A DNA stretch of 64,000 bases from Candidatus Bathyarchaeota archaeon (GTDB taxonomy: Archaea; Thermoproteota; Bathyarchaeia; Bathyarchaeales; Bathycorpusculaceae): contig CAWGZR010000010.1 of assembly GCA_963827165.1 (NCBI GenBank), positions 288,001-352,000 on the forward strand, in the 5' to 3' direction. The notes under the pieces are model-generated. The model saw only the letters and a program-made list of their open reading frames with translations, was not told the origin of the DNA and did not search any database. The number at the start of each line of letters is the position of its first letter. The stretch's first letter is position 1. The translations under genes were made by a program, and so were the position numbers. Below are positions 11,184-53,279 of the stretch, piece after piece.

Positions 11184-11450
11184 CTAACGTACGGATACCT
11201 TCGCTTTAAGCACAAAAACCCGCAGATTAATCCTTGACGGGCAAACAAAAGTGCAGTTTCCGCAGCCCACACATAGGTCAACCCGCAGTTTCCGGAGCGT
11301 TTCTTTCTTGTTTTTTTCGAAAGCCTCTTTGATTAAAACTGGGCTCAGGTTATGCGGGCAACTGCGCATGCAGACGCCGCAGCGGATGCAAGCCACCGAC
11401 TTGTCTTCCTGTGACTTAGCAGGATTCTCAAGCGTTTGAGAGGTACCCAT
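11184..11450 (-). CDS. Stand-alone 2x[4Fe-4S] ferredoxin resembling the RnfC C-terminal domain
   Basis: CIRCGVCMRSCP and CVGCGNCTFVCPSRINL; likely ATG 11450. Confidence 0.8.
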   Translation of the reverse strand: MGTSQTLENPAKSQEDKSVACIRCGVCMRSCPHNLSPVLIKEAFEKNKKETLRKLRVDLCVGCGNCTFVCPSRINLRVFVLKAKVSVR

Positions 11451-11660
11451 ATGTATCCCTTTATTAAAAAGCTGATTCGCAAAAGACAATTATATAGGTT
11501 TTTGATAAACTAAAATTTAGCAGAAAAACCGCAAAAGAGCAGGAAAAGAGAGTTCTTGCCCCCAAAAAATCAGGCCAGCAATGTGCCAAGCGATCTATCC
11601 TTTAGAAACGCTTATTACCCTTCGCCTGCGATGTTTATTCGTAGATTCTGAAGGCTTTTT

Positions 11661-12707
11661 ATGGCTTCTGAGAAAACCCGTCCACTCTATTCTAGTGATT
11701 TCCAGTCTTACTGCGGCAACGCCAAGAAACTGGTAGATTCGGAACTTCAAGCGCTGCTGCCAGTAGTTGCGGAGTTGAAGCTGCGGAAACAAATCGAGTA
11801 CGCCTTGCAGACCAGTGGGAAACGGCTTCGACCCACTTTGGTTCTTCTTTGTGGAGAAAGCGTTGGGGGCAATAGGGAGCGGCTTCGCAAGTTGGCTTTG
11901 GCGTTTGAGTTGCTGCATTTGGCGACGCTTGTCCACGATGACGTTTTGGACGAGGATTTGTTTCGCAGAAATTCTCTTTCGGTTTATGCGAAATGGAGCA
12001 TTAAAGACGCGATTTTGGTGGGTGACGTTTTGGCTTCGCTTTCGCTGTCTCTATGCAAGGGCTACAAGCGGGAAATCCTTAACGTGATGATAGACACGTG
12101 CATGCAGCTGTCCGACGGTGAGTACAGCGATGTTGAGTTGGCTGGAACGGGCTTAAGCGAGGATGATTATTTTGGCAAAATCAAAAAGAAATGTGCGTCG
12201 CTTTTCAGTGCAGCCTGCGAATGCGGAGGCCTTGCAGCCGATGGCTCATCTAACGTGACGGGTGCTTTGAGACTTTTCGGCGAAAACTATGGGATCGCTT
12301 ACCAGATACGGGACGACGTCTTGGATGCGGAGGAATGGGGAAACGACCTTCAACCCGACATAAACAAGTTCCGAGCAACACTTCCAATAATCCACGCCTA
12401 TCAAACCGCAAACCCAGAGAAACAGGTGCGTTTCAGAAGGCTACTTGCCGCAAATACAGCAGAAAACTTGAGCGTTTTCCTGAGGGAAGTTCAGGTTTAT
12501 TTCGAAAAAGGTTCTTTAGATTACTGCACAGGCAGAGTAGATGATTTTGTTGATAGCGCAGTTGCATGTTTGGCGCCTATTAGAGAGAGCAGACTGAAAG
12601 GTTATCTAAAAGAGATGGCAGAGGGGCTTAGAATCAAAGGTCCCGAAGTGAGCGTCGAAAAAGTTCTCTCAGAAACCCCTCGCAGACCGGTTTCGCCAAT
12701 TTACTGA
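11661..12707 (+). CDS. Polyprenyl diphosphate synthase
   Basis: GKRLRP, LVHDDVLD..RR, AYQIRDDVLD. Confidence 0.92.
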   Translation: MASEKTRPLYSSDFQSYCGNAKKLVDSELQALLPVVAELKLRKQIEYALQTSGKRLRPTLVLLCGESVGGNRERLRKLALAFELLHLATLVHDDVLDEDLFRRNSLSVYAKWSIKDAILVGDVLASLSLSLCKGYKREILNVMIDTCMQLSDGEYSDVELAGTGLSEDDYFGKIKKKCASLFSAACECGGLAADGSSNVTGALRLFGENYGIAYQIRDDVLDAEEWGNDLQPDINKFRATLPIIHAYQTANPEKQVRFRRLLAANTAENLSVFLREVQVYFEKGSLDYCTGRVDDFVDSAVACLAPIRESRLKGYLKEMAEGLRIKGPEVSVEKVLSETPRRPVSPIY

Positions 12708-12761
12708 GCAATGGGTAGTGATTCATAGTTCTTAATTCCGTTTTGCTAAGGACGTGAAAGT

Positions 12762-14255
12762 TTGACTGGGAAGTTGCAGCTAGCCGGCGAAGTTTTTTGG
12801 GATGAGGCGTCTCTCAAAGCTTACTCGGGGGATATGAGTCATTACTCAGTTAAGCCCCGGATGGTTGCTGTCCCGGCAAACGAAAACGACATAGACAAAC
12901 TGATTGTCTACGCAAAAGAAGAGTCCATCCCCATAACTCCGCGTGGCGCAGGCTCGAACCAGTCAGGCTCCGCCGTCGGCCCAGGCATAATCGTTTTGTT
13001 CTCAAAAATGAACGCAGCCATTAAGAGGGACGGTCGAAGAGTACGCGTGCAGTCTGGGATGATTCACCAAGTTTTGGATCAGCATTTGGCTTTGGATGGA
13101 CTTCGAATTCCGTATGACCCGACCTCACGTGGGTTTTGCACTATAGGCGGCAATGTCGCGACTAAAGCAAGCGGGCTTAGAAGCCTCAAGTATGGTACAG
13201 TTGATTCGGCAATTAGAAACCTGCGTTTCTTCGACATCGCCCACGGGTTAATCGACACTTCCAAAGGCTTACCAGAAAACTTGGAAGAAGCAATCGTAGA
13301 TTTGAAAAAAAGGCTTACCAACGACAAAGACGCGATGGAAATCTTGAAAGTGCGATGCAACCTCAAATCCAGCAGCGGCTACAACCTGAGAAGCCTCATA
13401 GAATACGAGCAACCAAGCGAAGTCGTCACTCATCTTCTTGCGGGTTCGGTTGGCACGCTAGGCGTTTTCAGTGAAGTGGAGTTGGAGGCAGTTCCAATCC
13501 CCAAAAGCGTCAGCCTTTATGTTGTCTTTTTCCGTTCCCTCTTAGCAGCAACTGAAGAGGTCCTAAAAATAGTGGCTTTCAAACCATCAGCCCTTGAACT
13601 CATGGACGCTTATGGCGTTGATTTGCTCAGGGTAACAAACGAAGTCGATGTTCCGCTTGACTGCAAAGCGGTTCTGCTTGTGGAATTCGACTCTGACTTA
13701 GACAGCGCAAGCGAGCTGATGGCGGGTTATTTGAAGGAGAAATCAAGAGAGTTCTCAGTCGAAAATGATGTGAAAAAACAAGCCACTCTTTGGAGGGTCA
13801 GGGAGTCGATGCTGCTTTGGATTATGAATTCGCTTGAAACACCGCAAAAAAGGTTTCCACCCTTCGCCGACGACATCGCGGTACCTTTGGAGAAACTGCC
13901 GAGTTTCGTTGACGCCGTTCAGCAGACGTTGGCAAGCTCTGGGACGATTGCGGTCATTTATGGGCATGCGGGCGAGGGAAATCTGCACATACGACCAATG
14001 ATAGGAGTCGAAAACTGGAAAGAAAACCTCAGAAACCTCTCCAACCTAATCTTCGAGACTGCATTGAATATAGGAGGCACCATAACGGCTGAACATGGGC
14101 TTGGAAGAAATAGATCCCGATATCTCCGTGAAGAATGGGGTGACAAACTTTACAACTACTTTTTGGAAGTCAAGAACATTTTTGATCCCGCTGATCTTCT
14201 AAACCCAGGCGTTGTTTTCACGTCGGATGATTTAACAGAAAACCTTCTGCCTTAG
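12762..14255 (+). CDS. FAD-linked oxidoreductase, GlcD/D-lactate dehydrogenase family
   Basis: PRGAGS, CTIGGNVAT, GHAGEGNLH, TAEHGLG, FDP..LLNPG. Confidence 0.9.
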   Translation: MTGKLQLAGEVFWDEASLKAYSGDMSHYSVKPRMVAVPANENDIDKLIVYAKEESIPITPRGAGSNQSGSAVGPGIIVLFSKMNAAIKRDGRRVRVQSGMIHQVLDQHLALDGLRIPYDPTSRGFCTIGGNVATKASGLRSLKYGTVDSAIRNLRFFDIAHGLIDTSKGLPENLEEAIVDLKKRLTNDKDAMEILKVRCNLKSSSGYNLRSLIEYEQPSEVVTHLLAGSVGTLGVFSEVELEAVPIPKSVSLYVVFFRSLLAATEEVLKIVAFKPSALELMDAYGVDLLRVTNEVDVPLDCKAVLLVEFDSDLDSASELMAGYLKEKSREFSVENDVKKQATLWRVRESMLLWIMNSLETPQKRFPPFADDIAVPLEKLPSFVDAVQQTLASSGTIAVIYGHAGEGNLHIRPMIGVENWKENLRNLSNLIFETALNIGGTITAEHGLGRNRSRYLREEWGDKLYNYFLEVKNIFDPADLLNPGVVFTSDDLTENLLP

Positions 14256-14443
14256 CATGCAAGCAAACGCCGTGTTTGTAGTGTGGCAGCTACAACAAAC
14301 TCTTTTATTCGCAGGAAAACTCATTTTTCAAAGGGTATTCTTATGCATTTTTTAGAGGTAGGATATTATCAAAGTTCCAAAAAAACGCATTCCTTTTTGT
14401 TTGGAAAAATTCGAAAGTTTAAATCAGGATGTGCTGACTGAAA

Positions 14444-15664
14444 ATGGAAACTCAAACAACGTCTCAGCCTGCCGCTAAGGATACTGGTTTACGTGGAATC
14501 CTTATCGCCGACACGGCTATATCACTTATCGATGGCGCAAAAGGCGAGCTTTCTTATCGTGGATTCGACATCCACGACTTAGCATCTTACTCAACCAGCG
14601 AAGAAGTTGCGTACCTTCTTCTTTACGGCAACCTGCCATCCACATCACAAGCAGAGGAATTCTCCAAGATGCTTGCTGCGGAGAGAAAACTGCCGCCCAG
14701 CACAATTGAAGTTCTAAAAAAGATTCCCAATGCAACTACGCCGATGGATGTTTTGCAAGCGACTGTGGCATTGCTGGCGGAATCTGACTCTGAAAAACGC
14801 ATCGACTCCAAAGAAGCCAACCTTAAACGCGCCGCACGACTCACATCTTTAATACCTACGATTGTAGCGTTTTGGGAAAGAATTAGAAAGAACCAACCAC
14901 TAGTCGAGCCAGACCCGAAACTTGCCAGAGCAGCAAATTTCCTTTACATGCTTACGGGCGAGGTGCCCGATCTAGAGACTGCGAAGGATTTTGACACTTG
15001 CCTTGTACTGCAGGCTGAACATTCCTTTAACGCCTCCACCTTCGCCGCAAGAGTTGTCGCTTCTACTCGGGCGCACATGTACGCCGCTGTTAGCGCCGCG
15101 GTTGGGTCGCTTTCAGGAGAATTGCATGGAGGCGCGAACATGCAAGTTATGCGGAACCTTATGGAAATCGGCGAACCAGCTAAAGTTGACGCTTGGGTTA
15201 AATCCAAGTTTGACAATCATGAACGAGTCATGGGCATGGGACACGCCGTTTACAAAGCGCTGGATCCCAGAGCGGATTTGCTTAGTCACATATCTGAAAA
15301 GCTTGCCAGGCGAACAGGCGAGCCAAAATGGTACTTGATGACTAAAGAGATTGAGCTCGCCACCCAACGTGAGTACCGTGAGCGCAAAGGCGGCGAAATA
15401 TACCCGAACGTTGACCTTTACAGCGCCAGCGTTTACCACATGCTCGGCATCCCCGACGACCTCTTCACACCCATCTTCGCCATATCTAGAATTCCAGGTT
15501 GGGCAGCCCACATCATCGAAGAAAAGTTTCCCGCGCCCCCAATCAAACCTGAACTTTACCGTCCATCCGCCCAGTACCAAGGAAACTATTGCGGAGTCAT
15601 TGGCTGCAAATACGTACCTATGGGTAATCGGACAGCGCCAAGTCAACAACAAACAAAGAGTTAA
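14444..15664 (+). CDS. Citrate / 2-methylcitrate synthase
   Basis: EHSFNAST, LHGGAN, GMGHAVYK..DPR, YPNVD. Confidence 0.95.
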   Translation: METQTTSQPAAKDTGLRGILIADTAISLIDGAKGELSYRGFDIHDLASYSTSEEVAYLLLYGNLPSTSQAEEFSKMLAAERKLPPSTIEVLKKIPNATTPMDVLQATVALLAESDSEKRIDSKEANLKRAARLTSLIPTIVAFWERIRKNQPLVEPDPKLARAANFLYMLTGEVPDLETAKDFDTCLVLQAEHSFNASTFAARVVASTRAHMYAAVSAAVGSLSGELHGGANMQVMRNLMEIGEPAKVDAWVKSKFDNHERVMGMGHAVYKALDPRADLLSHISEKLARRTGEPKWYLMTKEIELATQREYRERKGGEIYPNVDLYSASVYHMLGIPDDLFTPIFAISRIPGWAAHIIEEKFPAPPIKPELYRPSAQYQGNYCGVIGCKYVPMGNRTAPSQQQTKS

Positions 15665-15709
15665 CAACCAAAAAGGGCTGAAAAATAAGAAACTACGGGG
15701 CTTTGATTA

Positions 15710-16444
15710 TTAGGTTGAACTTCTGGTTTTCGGTCGCAATTCCTCAAAGATTCTTTTTCTTACTTCCAAAATGCGCTTGGTTACCTGAATAGATTTGGGG
15801 CAGACGAGTGTGCACCTGTAATATGTTTTGCAGCCAAATGCACCGTGCGGCTGATCCATAATTGCAAGGCGATCAAGCATATCTTTTACGCGGCTGTCAA
15901 AGATGTATCTGTGTGCGCGAACGATGGCGGCTGGACCCACATAGGCAGGGTCTTCTTTTTGGCTGACTGGGCAAGCGGAGACGCAACAAGCGCACATTAT
16001 GCATTTTATGTCGTCATCAAACAATGACCGCTGCTCAATCGTCTGCTGATGCTCTTTTCCTTCTTCAACCATAGTCAAGCTTATGCCGTCGGATGGATGA
16101 ACGGATTTTTCTTTCGCAAAGAATTCATCCAGTTCTACAACTAAATCCTTTACGACGGGGAAGACGCTCAGAGGCTCAATTAGAATTTCTTTGTCGGCTG
16201 GGTAGTCTTTCACCAGTTTCTGGCAGGCCAAAGCTGAAACCCCGTTGATGGTCATGCCATCAGAGCCGCAGATGCCGTGGGCGCAACTCATTCGGTAGGC
16301 TAAGCTGCCATCTTGTTCCCATCTGACCTTGTTGAGGCAGTCAAGCAGTCTATCAGTGGATTTGGCGTCGACGACGAATTTGTCGTAGCGAGGTTCCTTG
16401 TCAACTTTAGGGTCGAAACGGAAGATTTTCAATTTGACGTTCAT
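15710..16444 (-). CDS. sdhB: Succinate dehydrogenase/fumarate reductase Fe-S subunit
   Basis: SCAHGICGSD, LAC, CIMCACCVSACP, CKTYYRCTLVCP; likely ATG 16444. Confidence 0.95.
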   Translation of the reverse strand: MNVKLKIFRFDPKVDKEPRYDKFVVDAKSTDRLLDCLNKVRWEQDGSLAYRMSCAHGICGSDGMTINGVSALACQKLVKDYPADKEILIEPLSVFPVVKDLVVELDEFFAKEKSVHPSDGISLTMVEEGKEHQQTIEQRSLFDDDIKCIMCACCVSACPVSQKEDPAYVGPAAIVRAHRYIFDSRVKDMLDRLAIMDQPHGAFGCKTYYRCTLVCPKSIQVTKRILEVRKRIFEELRPKTRSST

Positions 16445-16445
16445 G

Positions 16446-18170
16446 CTAGTACTTCCTCGCTTTAGGTTCAAAACGGGTAATAACCACGGGTTTGTATCTT
16501 GCCTCAAGCCCGCTGGCAGAGGAAAAAGCCATGGTGTGTTTTAGCCAGGCTCCGTCGTTACGACTTGGAAAATCGTTGCGGTAATGGGCACCGCGGCTTT
16601 CCTGTCTCTGCAACGCGGAGTAGACAATAACTTCAGAAAGCTTCAACATATTAGTTAACTCCAATGCGCCTTCGAGCTCAAAGTTGAAACGTTTGCCACT
16701 ATAGCTTAACCCAACATGTGCCATCCTGCCTTGAAGCTCGCGAATTTTACCCTGCGCCTGCTCCAAACCCACCTTGTCACGGAAAACGCTGCATAACTGG
16801 GTCATGGTTCTCTGCATTTCTGCACGAATTATTGCCACACGTTCCTTTCCAGCTGAAGCCAACAGCGAATCGATTTTTGAAGAAACCATTTTCTCGGCGG
16901 CTGCGTCGAGCGGGACTTGCTGGTTCCCGGAAACATAATTCACGATATGTAAGCCTGCTCTTTTTCCGAAGACCACCAGATCAACCAGCGAGTTTGTCCC
17001 AAGCCTGTTTGCTCCATGAACGCTTACACAGGCACATTCGCCCGCTGCATACAAGCTAGGCACAATAATGGATTTCTCATCTGCAAGTACGCGCGCCTGG
17101 GCGTCGGTAGGCACGCCGCCCATCATATAGTGGCATGTTGGCGCAACGGGAATCAATGATTCACTTGCGTCTATGCCGAGGTAATTCTTAACAAATGACG
17201 TGACTTCCGAAAGTTTTTCCTGCAACTGGTCCTTTCCTAGGTGCGTTAAATCCAAGTAAACATAGTCCGACCCATCTACGCCTCTGCCCTGGGCAACCTC
17301 AGTTAAAATTGCTCTGGAAATTATGTCTCTGGGCGCCAAGTCCTTGAGCGTGGGAGCGTAACGCTCCATAAACCGTTCACCCTTGCCGTTCCGCAACACG
17401 CCGCCTTCAGCCCTTGCCGCCTCGCTGACCAATATGCCTAATCCATGTATGCCTGTTGGGTGAAACTGGACGAACTCCATATCTTCAAGAGGAACTCCGG
17501 CGTCAAAAGCCAAAGAGAAACCATCTCCTGTGGCAGCGAAAGACATCGAAGTCGTTTGGAAGATTCTACCGCAGCCGCCGGAAGCAAGCAAAACCGCTTT
17601 CGCATGGAAAACCATCGGCTCACCCGTCGCTAACTCGTACCCAGAAACGCCGCAGATTTGTCCCTCAGATTTTAAGAGCGACGTGACGAAGACTTCATTG
17701 AATATTTTTACGCCTCGAACCATGCAGTGATCGTAGAGGGTATCCATTATTACCCGTCCCGTCCTATCAGAGGCGTAGCAAGCCCGTTTGACAGGGGCTT
17801 CGCCAAAATTTTTCGTGTGACCGCCGAACCGTCTCTGCTCAATCGTTCCTTTATCATTGCGGCTGAAAGGGACGCCAAGATGTTCCAACTCAATCACGCG
17901 TTCCGGTGCCTCCCGAGCCAAAATTTCAGCTATATCCTGATCTGCCAAATAGTCGCTGCCCTTCACCGTGTCGAACATGTGCCATTCCCAGCGGTCTTCC
18001 TCCTCGTTTCCAAGAGCCGCCGCGATCCCCCCCTGGGCAGAGCCGCTGTGACTGCGGGAAGCGTACACCTTGCTGATTACAGCGATGTTGCACGTTTCAG
18101 AAGCAGTTAAGGCAGCAGTTAACCCCGCGATGCCTCCGCCAACGATTACGACGTCAAACTCGTGAATCAT
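16446..18170 (-). CDS. sdhA: Succinate dehydrogenase/fumarate reductase flavoprotein
   Basis: [11 protein letters not shown] (covalent FAD His), [29 protein letters not shown]. Confidence 0.96.
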
Positions 18171-19453
18171 GTTTTTCCAGCCTTTTCATCGAGAACTAGG
18201 ATTTCCCTGCCAATATCTTCAAGGGAATCGCAGCAGGTCATAGCCATTGCCATGCGCAAATCGCTCTTAACGTAGTTGAGGTACATTGCTACGGCTTCGG
18301 GTCCGCCTGCAAGGCTCATCCACGCAAGCGGTCTGCCTATCAAAGCTACATCCGCGCCTAACGCCAGGATTTTCAAAACGTCAAAACCTGTTCTCACCGC
18401 GCCATCAGCCATAATTGTAATTTTTCTTTTGAACTCGTCCACGATTTCGGGAAGGACTTCTGCTACGCCTTTTCCGCAGTCCATTACTCGGCCTCCGTGA
18501 TTGCTGACGTCTAGCGCTTTTGCACCCGAATCGACAACTTTGCCCGCATCCTCTGCATTCATGATTCCCTTGTAGATTACGGGTTTTTCTGTAGAATCGA
18601 CCAGTTCTTTGAGATCGCCCTCGCTTTTGCGGTAAAGCGGCTTGCCCCTCAGCGCCCAATTAGTGGAGCCGTATCCGTCCAAATCAACCCCGATAGCCAC
18701 GACGTCGGCTTGTTCACACCGCTTAAACAGGGTCAAAAGACGATCTTGAGATTGAGGCTTGAAAACAGGAATGCCCCAACCGCCGAGTCGGCCGATAACA
18801 TCTATGCCCGGATGGTCTGGCGCGTCGACTGTGTTGCCGCTTAACCCGACGGTACCTGCTAGCTTAGCGCCTTCAACCATGCCACGCTGGAATTCCTCCT
18901 CGCTCAAGGCGCCATTCATACTAATCAATGTCCCGCTGAAACTTGACGCCAAAACGGGTAAAACAATTTTGTTTCCCAGAAAATTTGTTTCAAAGTTTGG
19001 CTCGAGATGGTCTTTGATGACACGCATTTTCAGCTTATATCGGGATAGGGCTTGGAAGTTTGCGGTCCATGTTTTGCCTTGCCCAGCGCCACCGAACCCG
19101 ATTGGTTTGCCGTACTTCATGCCCTGGCAGAGTCTGTCAGGGTCTCCGTCACACACCTTGTTTACAGCACAGATTCTTGAAAGCTGCTTTCTGGCGATGT
19201 CTCGGTAGTACGTGATGTCTTTTGAGGGTTTTTCATTGGGCGGTGGGAAGTTTCTTTCGTAATTTGCCCTTACTTGAACATATTGTTGTTCGCTGATTTC
19301 TTTGAGGTTCCCTTTCCAATGACCGCAGACAGGGCAGCGCCAAGCGTTTGAAATTTCCGCAAGGTTCGAACCCGGCGGCAACTCCGCTCCTACGTCGCCT
19401 TTTTCCACGTCAAACGTAAAGCTACGGCAAAACCCACACACAAACTTCAACAA
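18167..19453 (-). CDS. Rubredoxin domain fused to FMN-dependent alpha-hydroxy-acid oxidase/dehydrogenase
   Basis: N-terminal CGFC...WRCPVCG; core [27 protein letters not shown]. Confidence 0.9.
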
Positions 19454-19766
19454 TAAACACCGAGTACAATTTGTCCCTTGAGGCGCTGAAACCTAACCAA
19501 ATCCAAGTTTACCGTTTCTAAAAAACTTTTGCAACTCGGTGATAGGAGCCGCTGTTGGCTCGCTATTAATTCTTTTCGCGCGAAGCAGATCAAATGATAA
19601 ATGCTTCACCTACTACCACCAAGCATCCGAGCAACGTAAGAAACAAATACAAAAAGTCCCATTCGTCTATTATGAAAACTTGGAAACTTCAACCTTGGAA
19701 AACACTTAAATCGCAGCCTAAAACCCATTCTTAATGATAGTATTTTGCAGCATTTGAAATGAAGGT

Positions 19767-20609: not shown

Positions 20610-20691
20610 AAACAAAAATGATTTAAGAAGAAATCAAAAAACTTCGGCTTCTCCGATATCGAGCATTATTTTTTGGTTTGATTTTTTCTAT

Positions 20692-23096: not shown

Positions 23097-23209
23097 CGAA
23101 TCTCCCTGTACCCGTCAAATAGGTTAAGCCCCATGAAGCAATAAGACTTGCCCTCCAAGGCATGTTGCGTGAGCTGAAAAATTCTTATTCCGCTTCTACA
23201 ACCTAACTA

Positions 23210-24373
23210 GTGATTGCCTTGAATTTAATTGAGAACGAAGCTAAGCAGGTGTTCTTCAAGTATGGTATTCCGATTCCAAAAGGAACACTAATCGCCAACC
23301 CAAAGCAAATAGCAGCTGCAACACAAAACATGAAGCCGCCCTACATGGTTAAAGCCCAAATTTCCTCGGGTGGAAGGGGAAAAGCTGGAGGAATCATACC
23401 TGTTACATCTGCAGGTGAAGCGGAAGAAGCCGCAAAGAAACTTTTTGGGACACAGATAAAAAATCTGCCAGTTAAGCAGGTGCTAGTCGAGGAAAAACTT
23501 TCGGTAAAAAAAGAATTGTACTTGGGAATAACGGTTGACCGATCTAACCGCGGCTACTTTGCTTTGGCTTCCGCGGTTGGCGGGGTGGAAATCGAAGAAG
23601 TAGCCGAAAAAACACCCGGCGCAATTTTCAGAAGCAAAGTTGATTCCCAGTTGGGCATGCGCTCTTTTCATGCATTAATCATTGCGAAGTATCTTGGCTA
23701 TGGCGGCAGCCAACTTCTGGAGGTGTCGGCTATCATCCAAAAGCTTTATCGGGCATGTGTCGAAAGTGACGCTGAAATAGCAGAGATTAATCCTTTGGTG
23801 GAAACGGAGACGGGAAATTTTGTGGCGGCTGACGCCCGCATGGTAATAGACGATAATGCGTTGTTTAGGCATCCTGAATTTGCTGCGGAGAGCGCTCGGA
23901 CGCTTTCAGCTCAAGAGGTTTTGGCTCAAAAAAACAATTTGGCTTACGTTAAGCTTGACGGCAATATAGGTGTAGTAGGCAATGGCGCGGGGTTGGTTAT
24001 GGCGACGCTTGATTTGTTGACGTTTTTTGGAGGCAAACCTGCCAATTTCCTGGATGTTGGCGGCGGGGCAAACATGGAAGCAATCAAATCGGCTTTGGAA
24101 ATCGTCCTCACCGACCTACAGACTAAAGCTGTTTTGGTCAACGTTCTTGGCGGCATAACGCGCTGCGACGAGGTTGCAAGGGGCATTGTGGAAGCTGTCA
24201 AAGATGTCGGGGCAGGGAAGCCTTTGGCTGTTAGGCTTGTTGGCACAAACCAGCGGGAAGGACAAAAAATCCTCGCTGATGCGGGAATAAGCGTTTTGGA
24301 TAGTATGGAGGAAGCGGCAAAACAGGCGGTTAAGTTTGCGGCGGAGGGAAGTGGGAATGGGAATTTTGGTTGA
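23210..24373 (+). CDS. sucC: Succinyl-CoA synthetase beta subunit
   Basis: KAQ..GGRGKAGGI, EINPL, GNGAGLVMATLD, PANFLDVGGG, GGITRCD. Confidence 0.94.
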   Translation: MIALNLIENEAKQVFFKYGIPIPKGTLIANPKQIAAATQNMKPPYMVKAQISSGGRGKAGGIIPVTSAGEAEEAAKKLFGTQIKNLPVKQVLVEEKLSVKKELYLGITVDRSNRGYFALASAVGGVEIEEVAEKTPGAIFRSKVDSQLGMRSFHALIIAKYLGYGGSQLLEVSAIIQKLYRACVESDAEIAEINPLVETETGNFVAADARMVIDDNALFRHPEFAAESARTLSAQEVLAQKNNLAYVKLDGNIGVVGNGAGLVMATLDLLTFFGGKPANFLDVGGGANMEAIKSALEIVLTDLQTKAVLVNVLGGITRCDEVARGIVEAVKDVGAGKPLAVRLVGTNQREGQKILADAGISVLDSMEEAAKQAVKFAAEGSGNGNFG

Positions 24374-25226
24374 TTCGGGCACTAAAGCGATTGTTCAAGG
24401 GATCACTGGTAAGCAGGGCAGCTACCAGACCAAACTTATGGTTGATTACGGAACAAAAATTGTGGCGGGAGTCGTTCCTGGCAAGGGCGGATCGACCGTC
24501 AACGGCATGCCAGTTTTCGACACTGTACGCGAAACTGTGGACACTTATTCGCCAGATGCCTCAATAATTTTTGTGCCGGCGCCAATTGCGCAAGACGCGG
24601 TTTTAGAAGCTATTGCCAACGAAATCAAAACAGTCGTTATAATCACCGAACATATACCGATAAGAGATGTCGTAAACTTCATGGGTTATGCGGCGCAGAT
24701 GCGAGTTTCCATCATCGGTCCAAATACGCCTGGAATTATTACGCCCGGAGAATGTAAACTTGGAATAATGCCAGCTGAAGTTTTTACGCCGGGTAGCGTT
24801 GGATTGGCATCAAGAAGCGGAACACTCACCTATGAAATAGCTGCTGGACTGACGGCTAAAGGTTTGGGGCAGTCGACCTGCTTGGGCGTCGGCGGCGACC
24901 CCGTTGTAGGCTTAAACTTTATCGAAGCGTTGGAGCTCTTCAAGTCTGATTCACAGACAAAAGCGGTGGTTTTGATAGGTGAAATCGGCGGCAATATGGA
25001 AGAGCAAACGGCACAGTATATAACTCAAACACATTATCCTAAGCCGGTCGTCGCATATGTGGCAGGACGTTATGTACCTGAAGGTAAAAGGATGGGGCAC
25101 GCAGGTGCCATAATAACGGGTAAGCAAGGAACTGCTCAAAGCAAGATTGATGCGTTTTCAAAAGCCGGCGTCAGGGTTGCTGAGAAGCCAAGCGATGTTT
25201 CTGCTTTATTGGCTGATTTAACCTGA
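24357..25226 (+). CDS. sucD: Succinyl-CoA synthetase alpha subunit
   Basis: VQGITG, IGPNTPG, SRSGTLTYE, GEIGG, RMGHAGA (phospho-His). Confidence 0.95.
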   Translation: MGILVDSGTKAIVQGITGKQGSYQTKLMVDYGTKIVAGVVPGKGGSTVNGMPVFDTVRETVDTYSPDASIIFVPAPIAQDAVLEAIANEIKTVVIITEHIPIRDVVNFMGYAAQMRVSIIGPNTPGIITPGECKLGIMPAEVFTPGSVGLASRSGTLTYEIAAGLTAKGLGQSTCLGVGGDPVVGLNFIEALELFKSDSQTKAVVLIGEIGGNMEEQTAQYITQTHYPKPVVAYVAGRYVPEGKRMGHAGAIITGKQGTAQSKIDAFSKAGVRVAEKPSDVSALLADLT

Positions 25227-25365
25227 GCGCCAACTGGCAAGTTGTCAATATCTGTTCAGTTGAGTTCAAGCGCCAATTCGGATTCCAAAAGATTTATCTT
25301 TAAACCTAAACAGACTATTAGTTAATTGCCAAGTCCTGAGCAGTTTTTTGCGCGAGCCGTTTTAT

Positions 25366-26325
25366 ATGAGCCAAAATAACACTAGAAAAATCAGTCCTGA
25401 AGATCTAAAGCTGTTCGATGGGTCAAACGGGAGACCTCTTTATCTTGTTTTCAAGGGCAAAGTCTACGATTTATCGACAAGCCAACTTTGGCTTGAAGGC
25501 AAACACATGGGCATGCACACCCGAACCGACGACTTAGCCGAAGCGATAAAAACCGCGCCTCACGGCGAAGACAACGTTTTCAGATTTCCCGTTATTGGCG
25601 AATTGTTAGAACCCACCCTTCAAGCTCCTGCAGCAGCCCCGATGATGGAGAAACCCTTGGAAGCGAAGGTTCAGCCATCGCCTGTTCCAGCTCAGCCAGC
25701 GAGGATGGAGAGGCGCACTTTTCTCAAGCTGGCGGCCGCGGCGGGTGGAGCAATCACGATTGCGGCTTTGTTGTCTACCCTAAAAGCAGGAACTTTCGTT
25801 CCGCCTCCAAGCTCAACTGCAGAGTGGCCAGTCGTCACTGTCACAAACATAAGCAAACTTTCAAACCTCACACCAGTCGTCTTCTACTACCCCTTAACAA
25901 GCACCCCTAACTATCTTGTCAAATTAGGAGTTGCAGCCACGGGCGGCATTGGGCCAGAAAAGGACATTGTGGCTTTCAGCGCAATTTGCCAGCATTTAGG
26001 ATGCGAATATGGCTTCGTACCTCCGGGAGGCTCACCGCCCTGCAACGCAGCTTACAAGGCTTCAATGCCTATGGGCTACTGCTGCTGTCACGGCTCTCAA
26101 TACGATTTCATCCATGGCGCAAAAGTAATCGGCGGTCCCGCTCCCCGACCAGTGCCCATGGTTCAATTGCAGCTAAACTCATCCACGGGGGACATAAGCG
26201 CGGTTGGGATGCAGGCACCTACGATTTTTGGGCATGGCCCGCCTGGAACCACTGATCCCGCGTCGGTTATGCAGTATGATTTGCAGGGTGGAGATTTGGT
26301 GACGCAATCCACAGTTTTGGGATGA
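25366..26325 (+). CDS. Cytochrome b5-like domain + internal Tat anchor + Rieske [2Fe-2S] protein
   Basis: KGKVYD..W.EGKHMGMH..APHG (b5-like); MERRTFLK + hydrophobic helix; CQHLGC and CCCHGSQYD boxes; GPAPRP. Confidence 0.9.
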   Translation: MSQNNTRKISPEDLKLFDGSNGRPLYLVFKGKVYDLSTSQLWLEGKHMGMHTRTDDLAEAIKTAPHGEDNVFRFPVIGELLEPTLQAPAAAPMMEKPLEAKVQPSPVPAQPARMERRTFLKLAAAAGGAITIAALLSTLKAGTFVPPPSSTAEWPVVTVTNISKLSNLTPVVFYYPLTSTPNYLVKLGVAATGGIGPEKDIVAFSAICQHLGCEYGFVPPGGSPPCNAAYKASMPMGYCCCHGSQYDFIHGAKVIGGPAPRPVPMVQLQLNSSTGDISAVGMQAPTIFGHGPPGTTDPASVMQYDLQGGDLVTQSTVLG

Positions 26326-27857
26326 GAGATATGGGCGAAGAAACTGAGAAGAAGACGGCTTATGACAGGCTTGTCGACTGGTTTGACGTGAAATTCGGTT
26401 TTGCCAAGACACCGCTTAAGCCGATTCCAGATTTCACGATGAACCCGATTTACTGGCTTGGTTTACTCTTGGCGGTGACTTTCGGGTTGCAGGCCCTAAC
26501 AGGAATATTTATGCTTCTCTACTACGTCCCCACACCCGCCCAAGCATACTCTTCAACAGCATCCATCATCAGCTCTGTGCCTCTTGGCTCACTCGTCGAA
26601 ACCTTTCACCTATACACCGCCTATGCCATGATTCTTTTGACGTTTCTTCATTTAGTTCGCAACTTTTTCGGCAGCGCGCATAAAGGAAACAGGGACTTGA
26701 TGTGGCTTGTCGGAATCGTATTGGCCACGGTGGTAATCGGCTTCGGCGTGACAGGCTACCTTTTACCGTGGACAGTGATTTCCAAATCTGCAAGCGACGT
26801 CGCCATCGGATTCCTCAACTTCTTCCCCGTTGGCATAGCGAACCTTGGAAAATTCGTGGCAGTAGGCTCAGGAAGCGACGCCTCGGAATTAACGACTTTT
26901 CTACATATCCACACCGTTTTTCTTCCGTTGGCGCTGATTGCGCTTTTGGGATTGAAGATTTACATGTACGAAGTGCATGGCCCAATCTACGTGTCAGCAT
27001 ATGGGAAACCTGGAAAAGGCAAATACTATAGTTGGTTCCCAAAAATCTTCCTCTACTTCGTCATGCTTGCAGCTGCGTATGTTGCGATTTTGCTGGCGGC
27101 AGCGTCTCTTTTCCCTCTATCTTTAGCCCCCGCGTATTCAGCCGCAACCGCAGGCGCATACGTAGTGCAGCCCGATTGGTACCTGCTTTGGGTTTATCAA
27201 CTATTGAAAATCCAGCTTTTCGAAGGCTCCGCAGCAGCTTACGTGATAGCCGCGTTGATTGCTTTCGGAGTGATTCTTTTCCTCATGCCTTTTTACGATA
27301 GGAGCAAACGAAGAAACCTCAGCCAACGACCAGTTTACTCCACCATTGGTGCTGTTCTGATAATTGAGCTTATCACTTTGACTATATGGGGATACTTAAC
27401 ACCTGGGCAAATAATTCCAGACTATCAAGCACTCGCAGTTTTAGGCGGAGCAGCCGTGGTAACCATCGCCGCCGTCTGGGCGGTTTATCGGCTTAGACGA
27501 AAAACAAACATGGCAACAGTGATACCTGTGCAAACGAAAACCAACTCTTCCGCCGCCAACATATCCATAGCAAGCCAGTCCTTTGCAGTGCAAGCCTCCG
27601 ACGAGATGGCTCGGACAAAGAAGGAGCAAATCAAACGCGCCGGCGAAAGCCTGTTTAGCCCATTCACCGCTGTCTTCGCGGTTTTCTTGGCGGTTGCTTC
27701 GGTTTCTTTGGCATCAGCCGTAAACATGCTGCCCACCATTTCAGCGAATGCATCTTTTTTCACCTTAGCTTTAATGGCTTTCGCAGTTTCGTCTTTTTTC
27801 ATGATTCGAATGCTTCGAAAGTTTGTTTTAGCGTATGAAGGAGCGGTGGCCAAATGA
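26322..27857 (+). CDS. Cytochrome b of a Rieske/cytb complex (unsplit, extra C-terminal helices)
   Basis: Q..TG...YYVP, H96/H110, TGYLLPW, H197, PDWY Qo motif, PFYDRS; ATGA overlap with the Rieske gene. Confidence 0.93.
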   Translation: MRDMGEETEKKTAYDRLVDWFDVKFGFAKTPLKPIPDFTMNPIYWLGLLLAVTFGLQALTGIFMLLYYVPTPAQAYSSTASIISSVPLGSLVETFHLYTAYAMILLTFLHLVRNFFGSAHKGNRDLMWLVGIVLATVVIGFGVTGYLLPWTVISKSASDVAIGFLNFFPVGIANLGKFVAVGSGSDASELTTFLHIHTVFLPLALIALLGLKIYMYEVHGPIYVSAYGKPGKGKYYSWFPKIFLYFVMLAAAYVAILLAAASLFPLSLAPAYSAATAGAYVVQPDWYLLWVYQLLKIQLFEGSAAAYVIAALIAFGVILFLMPFYDRSKRRNLSQRPVYSTIGAVLIIELITLTIWGYLTPGQIIPDYQALAVLGGAAVVTIAAVWAVYRLRRKTNMATVIPVQTKTNSSAANISIASQSFAVQASDEMARTKKEQIKRAGESLFSPFTAVFAVFLAVASVSLASAVNMLPTISANASFFTLALMAFAVSSFFMIRMLRKFVLAYEGAVAK

Positions 27858-28510
27858 TGAAGAGCGACTTTGATTCCTTACGGGTTACTACGTATTTCCT
27901 TTTGGCTTTTCTAGTCGTGGTCGGAGTTTCTATTTGGCTTCTGAATCTGATAAGCCAGCAAAGAGTCTTCGGTTTCTTGATGAGCGCCGAATTCGTCGCG
28001 TTCGCTATGCTCGTCTACCTTTACTACATGGAGGACCCAGCAGTCGCTAAGAAACTGTTGACCTCAGGGTTTGTTGCCATAGGAATTCTTGTTATTTTAT
28101 CTGGTGCCGTATTAGCCGGAGTCGGTACCCCTGTGGCGCTGCCTAAGCCCAACGTTTCGATGACCCTCTATGCTGGGGAGGTTTCTCCTACGTTGTTTGG
28201 GTTCGGGAACAGCGCAACCGCCATAACTTCGCCGGGTCCAATCCTTAACTTCACGGTGGGCGATGTCGTGAACATGACGATTTTTAACGCGGGAACAATG
28301 CCGCATAACTGGGCGATAGTCGACTCCGACAGCACTTCAGGCAAAGTTTTGTTCGGCGCAAAAATCGACAGCGGCTTAGTTCCTATACCTGTCAATGAAA
28401 CAGCATCGGTTGCTTTCAGAGTCACCAAAGCAGGGGACTACTTCTACATTTGTCAAGTTCCAGGGCACGTCCAGCTTGGCATGTGGGGAAGCGTGGTAGT
28501 GAATCCGTGA
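27854..28510 (+). CDS. Membrane-anchored type-1 copper cupredoxin (sulfocyanin/rusticyanin-like)
   Basis: Three N-terminal TM helices; MPHNW...YICQVPGHVQLGM copper ligands. Confidence 0.88.
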   Translation: MMKSDFDSLRVTTYFLLAFLVVVGVSIWLLNLISQQRVFGFLMSAEFVAFAMLVYLYYMEDPAVAKKLLTSGFVAIGILVILSGAVLAGVGTPVALPKPNVSMTLYAGEVSPTLFGFGNSATAITSPGPILNFTVGDVVNMTIFNAGTMPHNWAIVDSDSTSGKVLFGAKIDSGLVPIPVNETASVAFRVTKAGDYFYICQVPGHVQLGMWGSVVVNP

Positions 28511-29283
28511 TACGCAAAAACGCAGAAGAACTCTTCGTTTCATTTATGTTTTTGTTTGCAAGTTTACTCACGGGTCTAATGAGCTTCTTGGCATTTGGCT
28601 TTGTAATTGCAAAGCAAAAAGCCGAAAGAAAAAGGGAACCCCAAAAAGCTGTTGGTTTTCTTGCAGACAAGAATAGAGCGCTGAATTTTTACAGAATATT
28701 TTCTGTAGCCTACGACACTTTGAATCCGTCCCTGTACACCGTTGCCATGCGAAGCGAAATGGTAAATCAAATCGGAAACGGCGCGAACCTGCGAGTGCTT
28801 GACGTTGGATGCGGAACAGGCTACACGACCTCAGGAGTTTTGAGGCGAGGAGACATTGCGGAAGTGGTTGGGTTGGATATGAACCCTGTGCAGCTTAAAA
28901 GAGCCGTCAAGAACCTGCGCTTCGAAATGGACAGGGCTTCGATTTCAAGAGGCGACGCGGACAACCTGCCGTTTGAAGACGGCACTTTTGACGCCGTAAT
29001 TTCGGTCGGCGCCATCGAGTATTTTCCTGACCCCGAAAGAACAATAAAGGAGCTTTCAAGAGTCGCAAAGCCCGGTGGAACCGTTATTGTTGGTGGTCCC
29101 GAAGCAGGATGGTTCAGCAAGCTTGCGTTAAACAAGGTTTTTTATACGCCTTCTGCACAAGAAATGGAGACTTTTTTTCGCAAAGCTGACCTCGCCAATG
29201 TGAAATCGCGCTTGACAGGGATGAAAACTTTTTTCGCAACAAACAGATATGTTGTTTTTGCCGTTGGAAAGAAACCAGCATAG
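28507..29283 (+). CDS. UbiE/MenG-like SAM methyltransferase (start uncertain: GTG 28507 or ATG 28546)
   Basis: VLDVGCGTG, GDADNLPF, GAIEYFPDP, RVAKPGG; FYRIFSVAYD resembles the VTE3/haloarchaeal MenG type; N-terminal TM helix. Confidence 0.8.
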   Translation: MIRKNAEELFVSFMFLFASLLTGLMSFLAFGFVIAKQKAERKREPQKAVGFLADKNRALNFYRIFSVAYDTLNPSLYTVAMRSEMVNQIGNGANLRVLDVGCGTGYTTSGVLRRGDIAEVVGLDMNPVQLKRAVKNLRFEMDRASISRGDADNLPFEDGTFDAVISVGAIEYFPDPERTIKELSRVAKPGGTVIVGGPEAGWFSKLALNKVFYTPSAQEMETFFRKADLANVKSRLTGMKTFFATNRYVVFAVGKKPA

Positions 29284-29300
29284 ACACAAAAAAAATTGGT

Positions 29301-30332
29301 TTAAGCTCTTTTCCGCGAGGCGAGTAGAGCCCAGGCTACAGGGGCATATGCGGCTGCTAGCAATGACAATATGAAAGCAAGTTGCAACATGTTAGCCGCA
29401 TTTAAGAAGCCTGCAATTGCGTACCCTGCGATTAAGCCGAAGCTGGTGACGCTATGTGCAAGTATCATGTCAAGGTTGGCTGGAGCCATCAGCCGTGGAT
29501 TGTCCTTGTGAGCCCGAACGACAGAGATGGAGTGAATAACAAGCGGGATGGATAGCAAAGCGGCAAGCGTGTAGAGCGGTATGAATCTGAGCAAAGCGGA
29601 AACGGCGATTACAGCGTATGTGCATATCCAACTTGCTATGTACAGTTTGACTCCAGCGTCTTTACCATATCTTGCGACAAGCGTAAGTTTCCCAGCCGCT
29701 CTATCCTCCAAAATATCAGGAATCTCATTAATCACAATCATAGAGAACAACATTATCCCCAGAGGTAACGTCGCCAAAAACGCCTGCAACGTCACCGTTT
29801 GCGCCTCAACATAAAAAGCGCCTAAACCGATAACTGACCCAAAATTCACTAACATCACAATCTCGCCTAGTCCGTGGTGACCAAAACTAATGGGCGGAGC
29901 CGTGTAGAACACGGCGCAGAACACGCCCAATAACCCGAAGGCCAAGATAGGCAAACCTCGGGTTAAGGTAAGATAGAACCCGGCGGCCAAAGTTATCAGG
30001 TAGCAGAGCGTAAAAGCCTTAAACATACTTTTAGGCGCTAAAAGCCCACTGCTAAGAGTAGCGCTACCGCCGGAATATGGGTTCTTCTCGCCCGGCGCAA
30101 GCTTGTCAACGCTGTGCTTGTAATCGTAGTAGTCGTCGGTCATGTTTAAGGCGATATGATTGATTATGATAGCGACTAGCACGAGAAGAAAGTAAAACGG
30201 AATAAAACCTCTGTTAGTTGCCCAACTGACTAAACCCCCAAGGACCGCGGGGAAGATGCTTGGAGGCACAAAATGGTAGCGGAAGGCTTGCCACCACACT
30301 TTTGCTTTACTTGCTTTTAACGTACTAGTCAT
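29301..30332 (-). CDS. menA: 1,4-dihydroxy-2-naphthoate prenyltransferase (UbiA family)
   Basis: NMTDDYYDY..VD, PYSGGS, YTAPP, NEIPD..EDRAAGKLTL. Confidence 0.85.
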   Translation of the reverse strand: MTSTLKASKAKVWWQAFRYHFVPPSIFPAVLGGLVSWATNRGFIPFYFLLVLVAIIINHIALNMTDDYYDYKHSVDKLAPGEKNPYSGGSATLSSGLLAPKSMFKAFTLCYLITLAAGFYLTLTRGLPILAFGLLGVFCAVFYTAPPISFGHHGLGEIVMLVNFGSVIGLGAFYVEAQTVTLQAFLATLPLGIMLFSMIVINEIPDILEDRAAGKLTLVARYGKDAGVKLYIASWICTYAVIAVSALLRFIPLYTLAALLSIPLVIHSISVVRAHKDNPRLMAPANLDMILAHSVTSFGLIAGYAIAGFLNAANMLQLAFILSLLAAAYAPVAWALLASRKRA

Positions 30333-41215: not shown

Positions 41216-41217
41216 TT

Positions 41218-53264: not shown

Positions 53265-53279
53265 GTATCACTCCTCCTT

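Follow-up and report, generated by a model that had tools for sequence, protein, structure and literature searches.

A gene island of about 19 kb (positions 11184-30332) on contig CAWGZR010000010.1, within a stretch of 64,000 nucleotides that was analyzed as a whole (the window), combines part of an oxidative tricarboxylic acid (TCA) cycle with genes for quinone tailoring, a Rieske/cytochrome b complex, and a blue copper protein. We regard it as probable that this is a native locus of a soil- or peat-type Bathyarchaeon, that it covers the mid-section of an archaeal-type aerobic respiratory chain, and that the organism is a (micro)aerobic heterotroph. The respiratory assignment is plausible, and it is strengthened by a terminal oxidase that is encoded in a relative, locus L004. 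The gene arrangement as such is more than chance, as the order recurs in related contigs.

The island genes were taken as 17 open reading frames (ORFs), and all synteny counts refer to these 17. Family names are based on Pfam and equivalog names on the curated cut-offs of NCBIfam; scores are given together with the respective cut-off. A Pfam family was found for 16 of 19 ORFs scanned. Relatives were collected by a one-genome-per-species scan with the MmgE/PrpD-family protein of the island, from which the best 80 of 344 were kept as loci L001-L080, and conservation was followed by tblastn of 29 window proteins against these 80 loci. The neighborhoods of the relatives extend as far as the DNA that was fetched around each PrpD locus, and this scope applies to all statements on relatives.

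The respiratory part of the island consists of genes for a Rieske protein, cytochrome b, and a type-1 copper protein, joined by 4-nt overlaps between Rieske and cytochrome b and between cytochrome b and cupredoxin. The Rieske protein begins with a cytochrome-b5 domain (residues ~13-86), which is followed by a linker, a twin-arginine motif with a transmembrane (TM) helix (~120-149), and a Rieske domain of the SoxF/AioB type, whose boxes CQHLGC and CCHGS can be read in the translation. The best PDB match of the Rieske domain (192-311) at the sequence level is SoxF (1JM1, E 4e-20), and AioB and SoxF were the top Foldseek matches of the model. In the AlphaFold model, helix 122-149 and the Rieske domain reached a pLDDT above 90, the b5 domain 45-75, and the linker was of low confidence. 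As the twin-arginine motif and the TM helix come after the b5 domain, this domain should stay cytoplasmic. The b5 segment (13-86) matched b5-domain proteins (78-residue; 6VZ6, E 7e-15, and 6NZX, E 5e-14) and scored only 19 bits, below the cut-off, with Pfam Cyt-b5; H53, H57, and H72 of this segment are invariant in the window, L001, and L002. The fusion itself is present in the window, in L001 and L002, and in protein P0363. At E<=0.001, the protein had 1558 matches in a library clustered at 50% identity, and among the best 150 of these, two had both domains (one in full length, one as a fragment), 88 had only b5, and 60 had only Rieske. The nearest Rieske-only relatives begin at the Tat motif. 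An assignment as arsenite oxidase subunit was rejected, as there is no AioA and the gene overlaps that of cytochrome b.

The Qo motif PDWY of cytochrome b (284-287) is present in 116 of 120 homologues. Three of the four His expected for the two b-hemes in helices B and D are found: H96 and H110 are conserved in 115 of 120 homologues each (five gaps), and H197 in 119 of 120. The fourth position is occupied by Lys212, and this Lys is present in all 120 homologues, which range from 47 to 100% identity. It aligns with the second helix-D His of cytochrome b6, which we take to be the n-side heme ligand, in a column near the end of the phmmer alignment; His219, seven residues further on, is invariant. 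For loss of this fourth heme ligand, a precedent is reported from Pyrobaculum (PMC4122944). The same study ties PDWY to menaquinol-oxidizing complexes and reports a separate clade for the cytochromes b of non-halophilic archaea (Kao & Hunte 2014, PMC4122944). The pair is of bc type by its Rieske boxes, its twin-arginine motif with anchor helix, its PDWY motif, and its adjoining, co-oriented genes, and it stays below the cut-offs of the SoxC/SoxL2 equivalogs of Sulfolobales (SoxC 192.5, cut-off 740; SoxL2 71.4, cut-off 582). In the copper protein, the ligands H151, C200, H205, and M210 are invariant in all four aligned cupredoxins (alignment A1), and we infer that it would carry electrons from the Rieske/cytochrome b complex to an oxidase.

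The main basis for placing this operon in an aerobic chain is L004, in which an oxidase operon lies 0.3-7.3 kb upstream of the PrpD gene and thus directly beside a six-gene core that is shared with the window (see below). It encodes TatA/TatC, CoxB-like and CoxA-like subunits (CtaD_CoxA 556 bits), CoxC, subunit IV, a cupredoxin, a heme O synthase (265, cut-off 210), and a second cupredoxin. The translation of oxidase subunit II carries a Cys/His/Met motif, which we take to be the CuA site, and because of this CuA-type motif, the oxidase should take electrons from a one-electron carrier and not from quinol. The in-operon cupredoxin has all four type-1 copper ligands in common with the cupredoxin of the window, to which it is 52% identical over residues 99-216 (tblastn) and 43% over alignment A1. 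As a CuA oxidase operon with a homologous cupredoxin is thus found next to the core, the window operon is best understood as the middle of an aerobic chain.

Three genes of the island are candidates for quinone tailoring. With the UbiA-family prenyltransferase, all 10 NCBIfam matches were MenA-type or prenyltransferase models, and all remained below their cut-offs (best 148.7, cut-off 264; TIGR00751 97.8, cut-off 102.15); this MenA-like gene is 82-84% identical in L001 and L002. The methyltransferase reaches 65.2 on TIGR01934 (cut-off 158.35) and passes only the generic Pfam model Ubie_methyltran. Its true start is probably downstream of 28450. In the window as in L001 and L002, the gene adjoins that of the MenA-like protein, and by this context the enzyme may be a quinone C-methylase. 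The polyprenyl synthase, which is present in L001 (78%) and in L002 (70%; about 1.2 kb from the MenA-like gene), may make the quinone side chain. Because of the PDWY motif, the MenA-like/methyltransferase pair, and the prenyl synthase near MenA in L002, a menaquinone-type carrier is our best guess.

Assignable enzymes of the island account for only three of the eight TCA steps. Citrate synthase (77-86% identity) and SdhB (76-86%) are both present in L001-L005 and L007, and the Cys motifs CxxCxxCxxxCP and Cx5Cx3CP of SdhB are invariant (alignment A3). SdhA passes the model for the forward direction and stays far below the cut-offs of the fumarate reductase models (520, cut-off 933; 514, cut-off 854). 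A gene for a rubredoxin-fused FMN-dependent dehydrogenase (Rd-FMN_dh) heads an operon that continues with sdhA and sdhB, and its TGA overlaps the ATG of sdhA as ATGA. The order Rd-FMN_dh/SdhA/SdhB is kept in L002, L003, L004, L005, and L007, and the ATGA coupling is conserved in five loci. Besides the four rubredoxin Cys, C95, C101, C109, and C408 are invariant in 31 homologues (alignment A4), which suggests another Fe-S center. The family is widespread in archaea: proteins with this fusion are also found under the names of Methanoculleus, Methanobacteriales, Thorarchaeota, and Promethearchaeota (56-57% identity), hence of methanogens and Asgard archaea, so that it does not serve as an aerobic marker. 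Of the constituents of complex II, the flavoprotein and the iron-sulfur subunit are thus present; a membrane anchor was found neither in the window nor, as SdhC/D or SdhE/F type, beside SdhAB in L001-L007. Candidates for SdhCD were rejected in two cases: the ORFs beside SdhAB in L006 are HD-domain and GNAT-like, and a 112-aa ORF of the window (30994-31332, minus strand) has four predicted TM helices and no family. The latter ORF, which lies between the MenA-like gene and Rpr2, is the sole short multi-TM ORF outside the large genes.

Genes for eL31, eS19, and the RNase P subunit Rpr2 lie in the flanks of the island, and the contig is therefore archaeal. The seven best PrpD relatives (L001-L007) are 74-81% identical to the window protein. 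L001 and L003-L007 are titled Candidatus Bathyarchaeota or Bathyarchaeia, and L002 is titled Limnocylindrales; as L002 carries the same archaeal-type cluster and is placed among the Bathyarchaeia by both the PrpD and the ComA tree, its label is most simply explained by a binning error. The next PrpD relatives have Nitrososphaerota/Thaumarchaeota titles (63-69%), with bacterial titles (~58-64%) interleaved below ~64%. In the PrpD tree (like the ComA tree a quick maximum-likelihood tree under LG+G4, with branch support from SH-aLRT only), the window belongs to a Bathyarchaeia clade of eight rows with a support of 100, which groups with Nitrososphaerota (18 rows, support 100); 59 rows are separate, mostly with bacterial titles and a few titled Thermoplasmata. 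The ComA tree agrees on the Bathyarchaeia clade (support 99). Five of 120 listed eS19 homologues bear organism names, of which three are Bathyarchaeia, Bathyarchaeum, and Bathyarchaeota (80-83% identity); the other two are bacterial and must be mislabeled, given that the protein is an archaeal ribosomal one. Between Bathyarchaeia of different names, eS19 identity is about 80%, and the host is thus supported as an archaeon with Bathyarchaeia as closest labeled relatives at class level only, which is the level at which the PrpD relatives and eS19 names support the Bathyarchaeon presumed in the initial annotation of this DNA. Record titles of the relatives hint at peat and bog habitats. Bacterial-titled records (Limnocylindrales, Acidoferrales, Betaproteobacteria) with close homologues of the eS19, cytochrome b, or flavoenzyme of the window were also seen (L002 and proteins P0003, P0019, P0139, P0178, and P0252) and are probably archaeal contigs binned into bacterial metagenome-assembled genomes (MAGs).

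The closest neighborhood is that of L001, which has 15 of the 17 island genes in the same order (65-92% identity) and also shares the flank with Rpr2 and RmlD. It is without the ferredoxin and the Rd-FMN_dh, and hence has five of the six core genes. L002 has 11 of 17 genes in a rearranged order: cupredoxin, cytochrome b, and Rieske; PrpD; ComA; Rd-FMN_dh, SdhA, and SdhB; citrate synthase; prenyl synthase; and, further on, MenA and the methyltransferase. L003, L004, L005, and L007 share the six-gene core, which consists of PrpD, ComA, Rd-FMN_dh-SdhA-SdhB, and citrate synthase. L006 retains PrpD, and its SdhAB, which lies beside a class II fumarase, is more divergent (56-66%). Co-conservation, which had been proposed as a check, is thus seen for a stable six-gene core, and the Rieske/cytochrome b/cupredoxin operon and the MenA-like/methyltransferase pair are linked to it in two of the seven relatives (L001 and L002). 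Two side aspects of these loci may be mentioned. In L001 (409-9883 and 13653-16096), RmlD, MenA, Rieske, and SucC each appear as two in-frame pieces and the SdhA match covers residues 1-382 only, which may be due to assembly indel errors or real decay. L006 (3841-5427 and 12928-16796) encodes an archaeal-type phosphoenolpyruvate carboxylase elsewhere in the locus, and its FumC-SdhB-SdhA row is again without SdhCD.

Taken together, these genes could be wired as follows. Polyprenyl synthase, MenA-like prenyltransferase, and UbiE/MenG-like methyltransferase would finish a naphthoquinone whose head group would be made elsewhere. Electrons would be donated by succinate via SdhAB and by 2-hydroxy acids via the FAD- and FMN-dependent dehydrogenases, and a Rieske/cytochrome b complex of the kind known from Sulfolobus SoxF/SoxG and Nitrososphaerota would oxidize the quinol at its Qo site with the PDWY motif. 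The Tat-exported Rieske cluster would reduce the membrane-anchored type-1 copper protein, which in turn would reduce the CuA site of an A-type heme-copper oxidase that would be encoded outside the window, as it is beside the core in L004. From such a chain would follow a (micro)aerobic heterotroph like Houtuousia, a genus of soil Bathyarchaeia that is compared below.

Several observations weigh against this chain. Its oxygen end rests on one relative, L004. Tblastn of the 64 kb with proteins of a relative detected no heme-copper oxidase, heme O synthase, or TatC, and there is no terminal oxidase, heme O/A synthase, or NADH dehydrogenase among the window genes, so that the initial annotation was right in stating that a terminal oxidase is missing from the window; the other core-bearing loci showed no oxidase in the fetched DNA either (66 further ORFs, L002-L007). 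On the quinone side, no head-group (Men/Mqn) genes were found within the 64-kb window, and the MenA-like protein, the methyltransferase, and the prenyl synthase all score under their equivalog cut-offs. No SdhC/SdhD-like gene was found in the window among ORFs of at least 110 aa and short multi-TM ORFs, and proteins that bear the names of strict anaerobes contain the rubredoxin-FMN_dh fusion as well. Box II of the Rieske domain is followed by Ser and Tyr, which presumably fits mid- or high-potential clusters and not the classic low-potential menaquinol oxidizers. With Lys in the place of the fourth heme ligand throughout the 120 cytochrome b homologues, one cannot count on a canonical Q cycle with two hemes. 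Finally, Houtuousia-type labels (BA_ or 40CM) appear on none of the 80 best PrpD loci, and L006, the MAG of which is assigned to a different order, Baizomonadales/B26-1 (PMC10321748, supplement), shares the PrpD subclade of L003-L007.

The missing oxidase would also fit a chain that is not aerobic, in which another high-potential acceptor, such as a copper nitrite reductase or an extracellular acceptor, takes the electrons, or in which SdhAB works as a fumarate reductase under anoxia and reoxidizes quinol or the rubredoxin flavoenzyme. The occurrence of the Rd-FMN_dh in proteins named from methanogens and Asgard archaea and the peat and bog habitats hinted at by the titles, which are largely anoxic, agree with such a view, as do the description of Bathyarchaeia as mostly anaerobes in a recent review (PMC12694404) and the counts in Table S7 of the Houtuousia study, where no MAG column out of 86 shows a count for the KEGG orthologues of sdhC or sdhD and 23 of 86 show one for sdhA (PMC10321748). 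However, SdhA follows the forward and not the fumarate reductase models, the same core is accompanied in L004 by a full A-type oxidase operon that includes a homologous cupredoxin and a heme O synthase, and neither the window nor L001-L007 showed a nitrite reductase or a multiheme cytochrome; we therefore consider a non-aerobic chain unlikely. Another view could be derived from the odd architecture of the proteins: the cytoplasmic b5 domain on the Rieske protein and the anchor-less SdhAB with its rubredoxin flavoenzyme might form a direct route by which soluble dehydrogenases feed into or around the bc complex and which bypasses part of the quinone pool. The conservation of the b5-Rieske fusion, the Lys212 found in every cytochrome b homologue, and the ATGA coupling of Rd-FMN_dh and sdhA in five loci without any detected SdhCD would be in line with it. 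This argument is purely architectural, though, the b5 domain was modeled with modest pLDDT, and SdhB shows every classical motif and scores above the threshold of the membrane-bound enzyme, so that a divergent anchor encoded elsewhere is the simpler explanation, and such a bypass appears very improbable. In the more specific version of a re-wired complex II/III, a heme-binding b5 domain, a Lys-altered or lost heme bH, and the anchor-less SdhAB would feed the bc complex at the n-side via carrier domains, which we hold to be quite improbable. If it were true, soluble dehydrogenases for 2-hydroxy acids and succinate would deliver electrons to the Rieske/cytochrome b complex instead of or besides SdhCD and the quinone pool, and this would be a previously undescribed input route into the complex.

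The origin of the island also has to be considered, as the initial annotation had described it as an acquired and self-contained module. According to this explanation, the 19 kb would be a horizontally acquired respiratory island in an otherwise fermentative or acetogenic Bathyarchaeon. The G+C content of 0.47-0.50 at 12-30 kb, compared to 0.38-0.45 in most other 2-kb bins, could be taken as a sign of this, and synteny with L001 ends at the prenyl-synthase side, where L001 has an unrelated 316-aa gene and the window has low-GC hypothetical ORFs. In addition, the respiratory operon and SucCD are not in the fetched parts of L003-L007, and a 2024 study on Bathy-6 reported that its Bathyarchaeia genomes contained neither a known pathway for quinone synthesis nor a terminal acceptor (PMC11697101). 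At the gene level, however, the mean GC content at third codon positions (GC3) is 0.514 for the island and 0.481 for other housekeeping-like window genes (P-type ATPase 0.515, eS19 0.480, Rml genes 0.45-0.50, LigD/Ku 0.47-0.48), and the compositional outlier is not the respiratory cluster but a glycosyltransferase block at 41-58 kb (GC3 0.32-0.44). There is no tRNA gene, integrase, or transposase in or beside the island, the sole insertion sequence of the window being at 45486-46337, and the flanks contain only short, imperfect direct repeats at chance level. Past the MenA end, synteny with L001 continues and includes Rpr2 and RmlD, island and flank together being 75-92% identical at the protein level, which means that the arrangement predates the divergence from L001 and refutes a recent event. 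The PrpD and ComA copies of Bathyarchaeia form one clade next to Nitrososphaerota and not inside bacteria. Nor is the cluster self-contained, as most TCA steps, SdhCD, NADH dehydrogenase, oxidase, and the head-group pathway are missing from the window. An acquired island is thus quite unlikely; there is no sign of recent acquisition, and we see the island as a native, lineage-conserved neighborhood. An ancient transfer between archaeal classes is possible.

The PrpD-like and ComA-like genes of the island form a conserved pair. Both are neighbors in 74 of 80 loci, 72 times within 700 bp, and three of the six misses are contig ends. The pair spans Bathyarchaeia, Nitrososphaerota, Thermoplasmata, Chloroflexota, Balneolaceae, Acidobacteriota, and others. 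Its bacterial neighbors are lineage-specific only (DUF488, OsmC, Pyr_redox_2, and a cbb3 oxidase in Balneolaceae), and no shared functional theme was found among them. The PrpD-family protein failed all PrpD equivalog models (165.1, cut-off 950; 135.1, cut-off 575; 109.5, cut-off 458), and these cut-offs are also missed by bacterial and Nitrososphaerota members of the clade. Among solved structures, cis-aconitate decarboxylase (1e-26) and 2-methylcitrate dehydratase (4e-25) come closest to it. The ComA equivalog is missed as well (70.6, cut-off 280; two clade members 75.6 and 90), and solved ComA structures match with only E 8e-12. The pair is thus a conserved two-gene, cross-domain module whose enzyme names are not assignable. 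This also bears on the use of propionate-derived carbon that had been suggested: the PrpD-family protein is about equally far from cis-aconitate decarboxylases and 2-methylcitrate dehydratases, and the suggestion is not upheld. As in the methylcitrate cycle with PrpC and PrpD, a citrate synthase of the citrate synthase II/2-methylcitrate synthase subfamily and an MmgE/PrpD gene share one neighborhood; in contrast to that cycle, the PrpD-like protein fails three PrpD models, there is no PrpB or AcnB/AcnD in the neighborhood, and the constant partner is of the ComA family and not a Prp gene.

The complete inventory is given in the table below. The 17 uninterrupted ORFs contain every family of the initial annotation, which had described about 19 kb without frameshifts, and genes of the quinone-tailoring families and the Rieske/cytochrome b/type-1 copper operon are present. 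The names PrpD, MenA, and MenG-like hold at the family level, as all three are below equivalog cut-offs. Overlooked were the ferredoxin, the ComA-family gene, and the 275-aa membrane protein, as well as the rubredoxin domain on the FMN dehydrogenase and the cytochrome-b5 domain on the Rieske protein. The ferredoxin matched the C-terminal region of NCBIfam rnfC with 63.5 bits, far under the cut-off, and has no homologue in any of the 80 related loci; it is a marginal member of the cluster. The GlcD-type oxidase is syntenic in L001 alone (76%). The 275-aa membrane protein has no Pfam family at E<=0.001 (weak Filamin match, E 0.009), and the ESM Atlas gave nothing usable. With a homologue in L001 only (65%), it is probably an insertion into the PrpD/ComA pair.

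Table. Genes of the island, with scores followed by the cut-off where two values are given
Position	Strand	Product	Basis
11184-11489	-	2x[4Fe-4S] ferredoxin, like RnfC C-terminus	Pfam Fer4_7 and others, E ~1e-10
11661-12707	+	trans-polyprenyl diphosphate synthase	PF00348 E 2e-54; NCBIfam best IdsA 177 vs 468
12762-14255	+	GlcD/D-lactate dehydrogenase-type FAD-linked oxidase	PF01565 + PF02913; GlcD 223.8 vs 567.9
14444-15664	+	citrate synthase, citrate synthase II/2-methylcitrate synthase subfamily	PF00285 E 9e-125; TIGR01800 424.5 vs 421.3
15710-16507	-	SdhB, succinate dehydrogenase/fumarate reductase iron-sulfur subunit	NF004616 260.5 vs 228
16446-18170	-	SdhA flavoprotein	TIGR01816 (sdhA_forward) 768.2 vs 727.35
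18167-19453	-	rubredoxin-fused protein of the FMN-dependent alpha-hydroxy-acid dehydrogenase family	PF00301 + PF01070; FMN_dh 127 vs 376
19767-20609	+	ComA (phosphosulfolactate synthase) family protein	PF02679 208.6 bits; arch_ComA 70.6 vs 280
20692-21519	-	275-aa membrane protein with TM helices at the N-terminus, a linker rich in Ser/Thr, and possibly an Ig-like C-terminus	
21723-23096	-	MmgE/PrpD-family protein	PF03972 + PF19305
23210-24373	+	SucC, succinyl-CoA synthetase beta	NF001913 444.7 vs 370; L001 78%, frameshift-split there
24336-25226	+	SucD, succinyl-CoA synthetase alpha	TIGR01019 405.1 vs 353.2; L001 81%
25348-26325	+	Rieske [2Fe-2S] subunit with N-terminal cytochrome-b5 domain	NCBIfam Rieske 78.6 vs 95.65
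26322-27857	+	cytochrome b, fused N+C, extra C-terminal helices	PF00033, PF13631, PF00032; SoxC 192.5 vs 740
27854-28510	+	membrane-anchored type-1 (blue) copper protein	PF00127 31.9 vs 21.2; PF06525 (sulfocyanin), weak
28450-29283	+	UbiE/MenG-type class I S-adenosylmethionine (SAM) methyltransferase, N-terminal TM	PF08241; PF01209 52.7 vs 20.1
29301-30332	-	UbiA-family prenyltransferase, nearest MenA (1,4-dihydroxy-2-naphthoate polyprenyltransferase)	PF01040

Elsewhere in the window, positions 61085-63999 (minus strand) encode Ku, a fusion of an ATP-dependent ligase with a LigD 3'-phosphoesterase domain, and a primase-polymerase of the LigD type that runs off the window end. This is a bacterial-style non-homologous end joining set, which is uncommon in archaea. 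A protein with a CAP12/Pycsar-type TIR effector domain (1402-2280, plus strand) is possibly encoded by a defense gene. The low-GC block at 41000-58000 contains glycosyltransferases, methyltransferases, and hypothetical genes, as well as the DDE transposase of the insertion sequence mentioned above (45486-46337). Rfam and tRNA scans of the whole window gave nothing, and a sigma-70 promoter/terminator scan gave 14 promoter-like sites with 18.7 expected, which is background from a bacterial model that is not applicable to an archaeon.

Aerobic soil Bathyarchaeia have been in print since 2023, and the headline of this work is therefore not new. Hou et al. described soil MAGs of Houtuousia (GTDB g__40CM-2-53-6) that are without the Wood-Ljungdahl pathway and pyruvate:ferredoxin oxidoreductase (PFOR), and that encode cytochrome c oxidases, a nearly complete TCA cycle, and the glyoxylate cycle, from which a (micro)aerobic lifestyle was proposed (Hou et al. 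2023, PMC10321748); the account is taken up again in a 2025 review (PMC12694404). Strong novelty of a quinone/cytochrome chain in Bathyarchaeia can not be maintained. The initial annotation had named a host in a known respiring lineage as an outcome that would speak against it, and this applies in part, as a respiring genus of Bathyarchaeia is in print (PMC10321748) and L004 has a heme-copper oxidase. In the open-access literature, we found no paper on a complex III, a blue copper carrier, or menaquinone genes of Bathyarchaeia, nor on the b5-Rieske fusion or the PrpD/ComA pair. The Lys at the fourth heme-ligand position and an SdhAB that is without SdhCD and coupled to a rubredoxin flavoenzyme were likewise not found in print.

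What the locus adds to the oxidase report of 2023 is a concrete conserved set of quinone tailoring, Rieske/cytochrome b, and blue copper carrier genes. This set is common to related peat and soil MAGs and bears on carbon-turnover models for oxic or fluctuating soils. The trio of MenA-like, methyltransferase, and prenyl synthase genes, together with the PDWY cytochrome b, is a useful counter-example to the statement of 2024 that there is no quinone pathway (PMC11697101). The conserved oddities, namely the b5-Rieske fusion, Lys212, the anchor-less SdhAB, and the PrpD/ComA pair, raise the biochemical question of whether they alter function.

The locus may be compared with several known systems. 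With Houtuousia, it shares the class, the soil habitat (of the relatives), the TCA genes including SdhAB and succinyl-CoA synthetase, and a heme-copper oxidase, which is found here in L004; it differs in that the isolate labels of Houtuousia are, as noted, missing from the best PrpD loci. Rieske, K00412, K02548, and K03183 do not appear in the supplement of the Houtuousia paper, nor menaquinone in its main text (PMC10321748), and because they are not among its terms, what the locus contributes beyond that paper is a complex III analogue together with a blue copper carrier and genes for quinone tailoring. The SoxM supercomplex (SoxEFGHIM) of Sulfolobus acidocaldarius, with SoxF as Rieske protein, SoxG as cytochrome b, SoxE as sulfocyanin, and SoxM as heme-copper oxidase, provides with SoxF the best solved match of the window Rieske protein, and PDWY, which the window cytochrome b contains, is also reported for SoxG (PMC4122944). 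Further parallels are the membrane-bound copper protein of type 1, which matches the sulfocyanin family of Pfam weakly, and the lack of a c-type cytochrome. In contrast to SoxM, the window operon is without an oxidase, its cytochrome b scores far below the SoxC cut-off, its Rieske protein has an extra N-terminal b5 domain, and Lys takes the place of the fourth ligand in its cytochrome b; the oxidase of L004 is CtaD/CoxA-like and not SoxB-like (87 bits). Nitrososphaerota and soil Thermoplasmata are archaeal soil organisms with blue copper proteins in place of cytochrome c, and their respiratory chain combines complex III, plastocyanin-like proteins, and a heme-copper oxidase. The PrpD and ComA proteins of the window are sister to the Nitrososphaerota copies; an ammonia or copper monooxygenase is absent here. 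The FMN dehydrogenase with its N-terminal carrier domain may be likened to flavocytochrome b2, the L-lactate dehydrogenase of yeast, in which FMN_dh is combined with cytochrome b5; in the window protein, the carrier domain is a rubredoxin, four further Cys are invariant, and LldD models are far under their cut-off. The locus is probably a further, more detailed instance of the published aerobic soil and peat Bathyarchaeia, built on the archaeal SoxM/Nitrososphaerota pattern.

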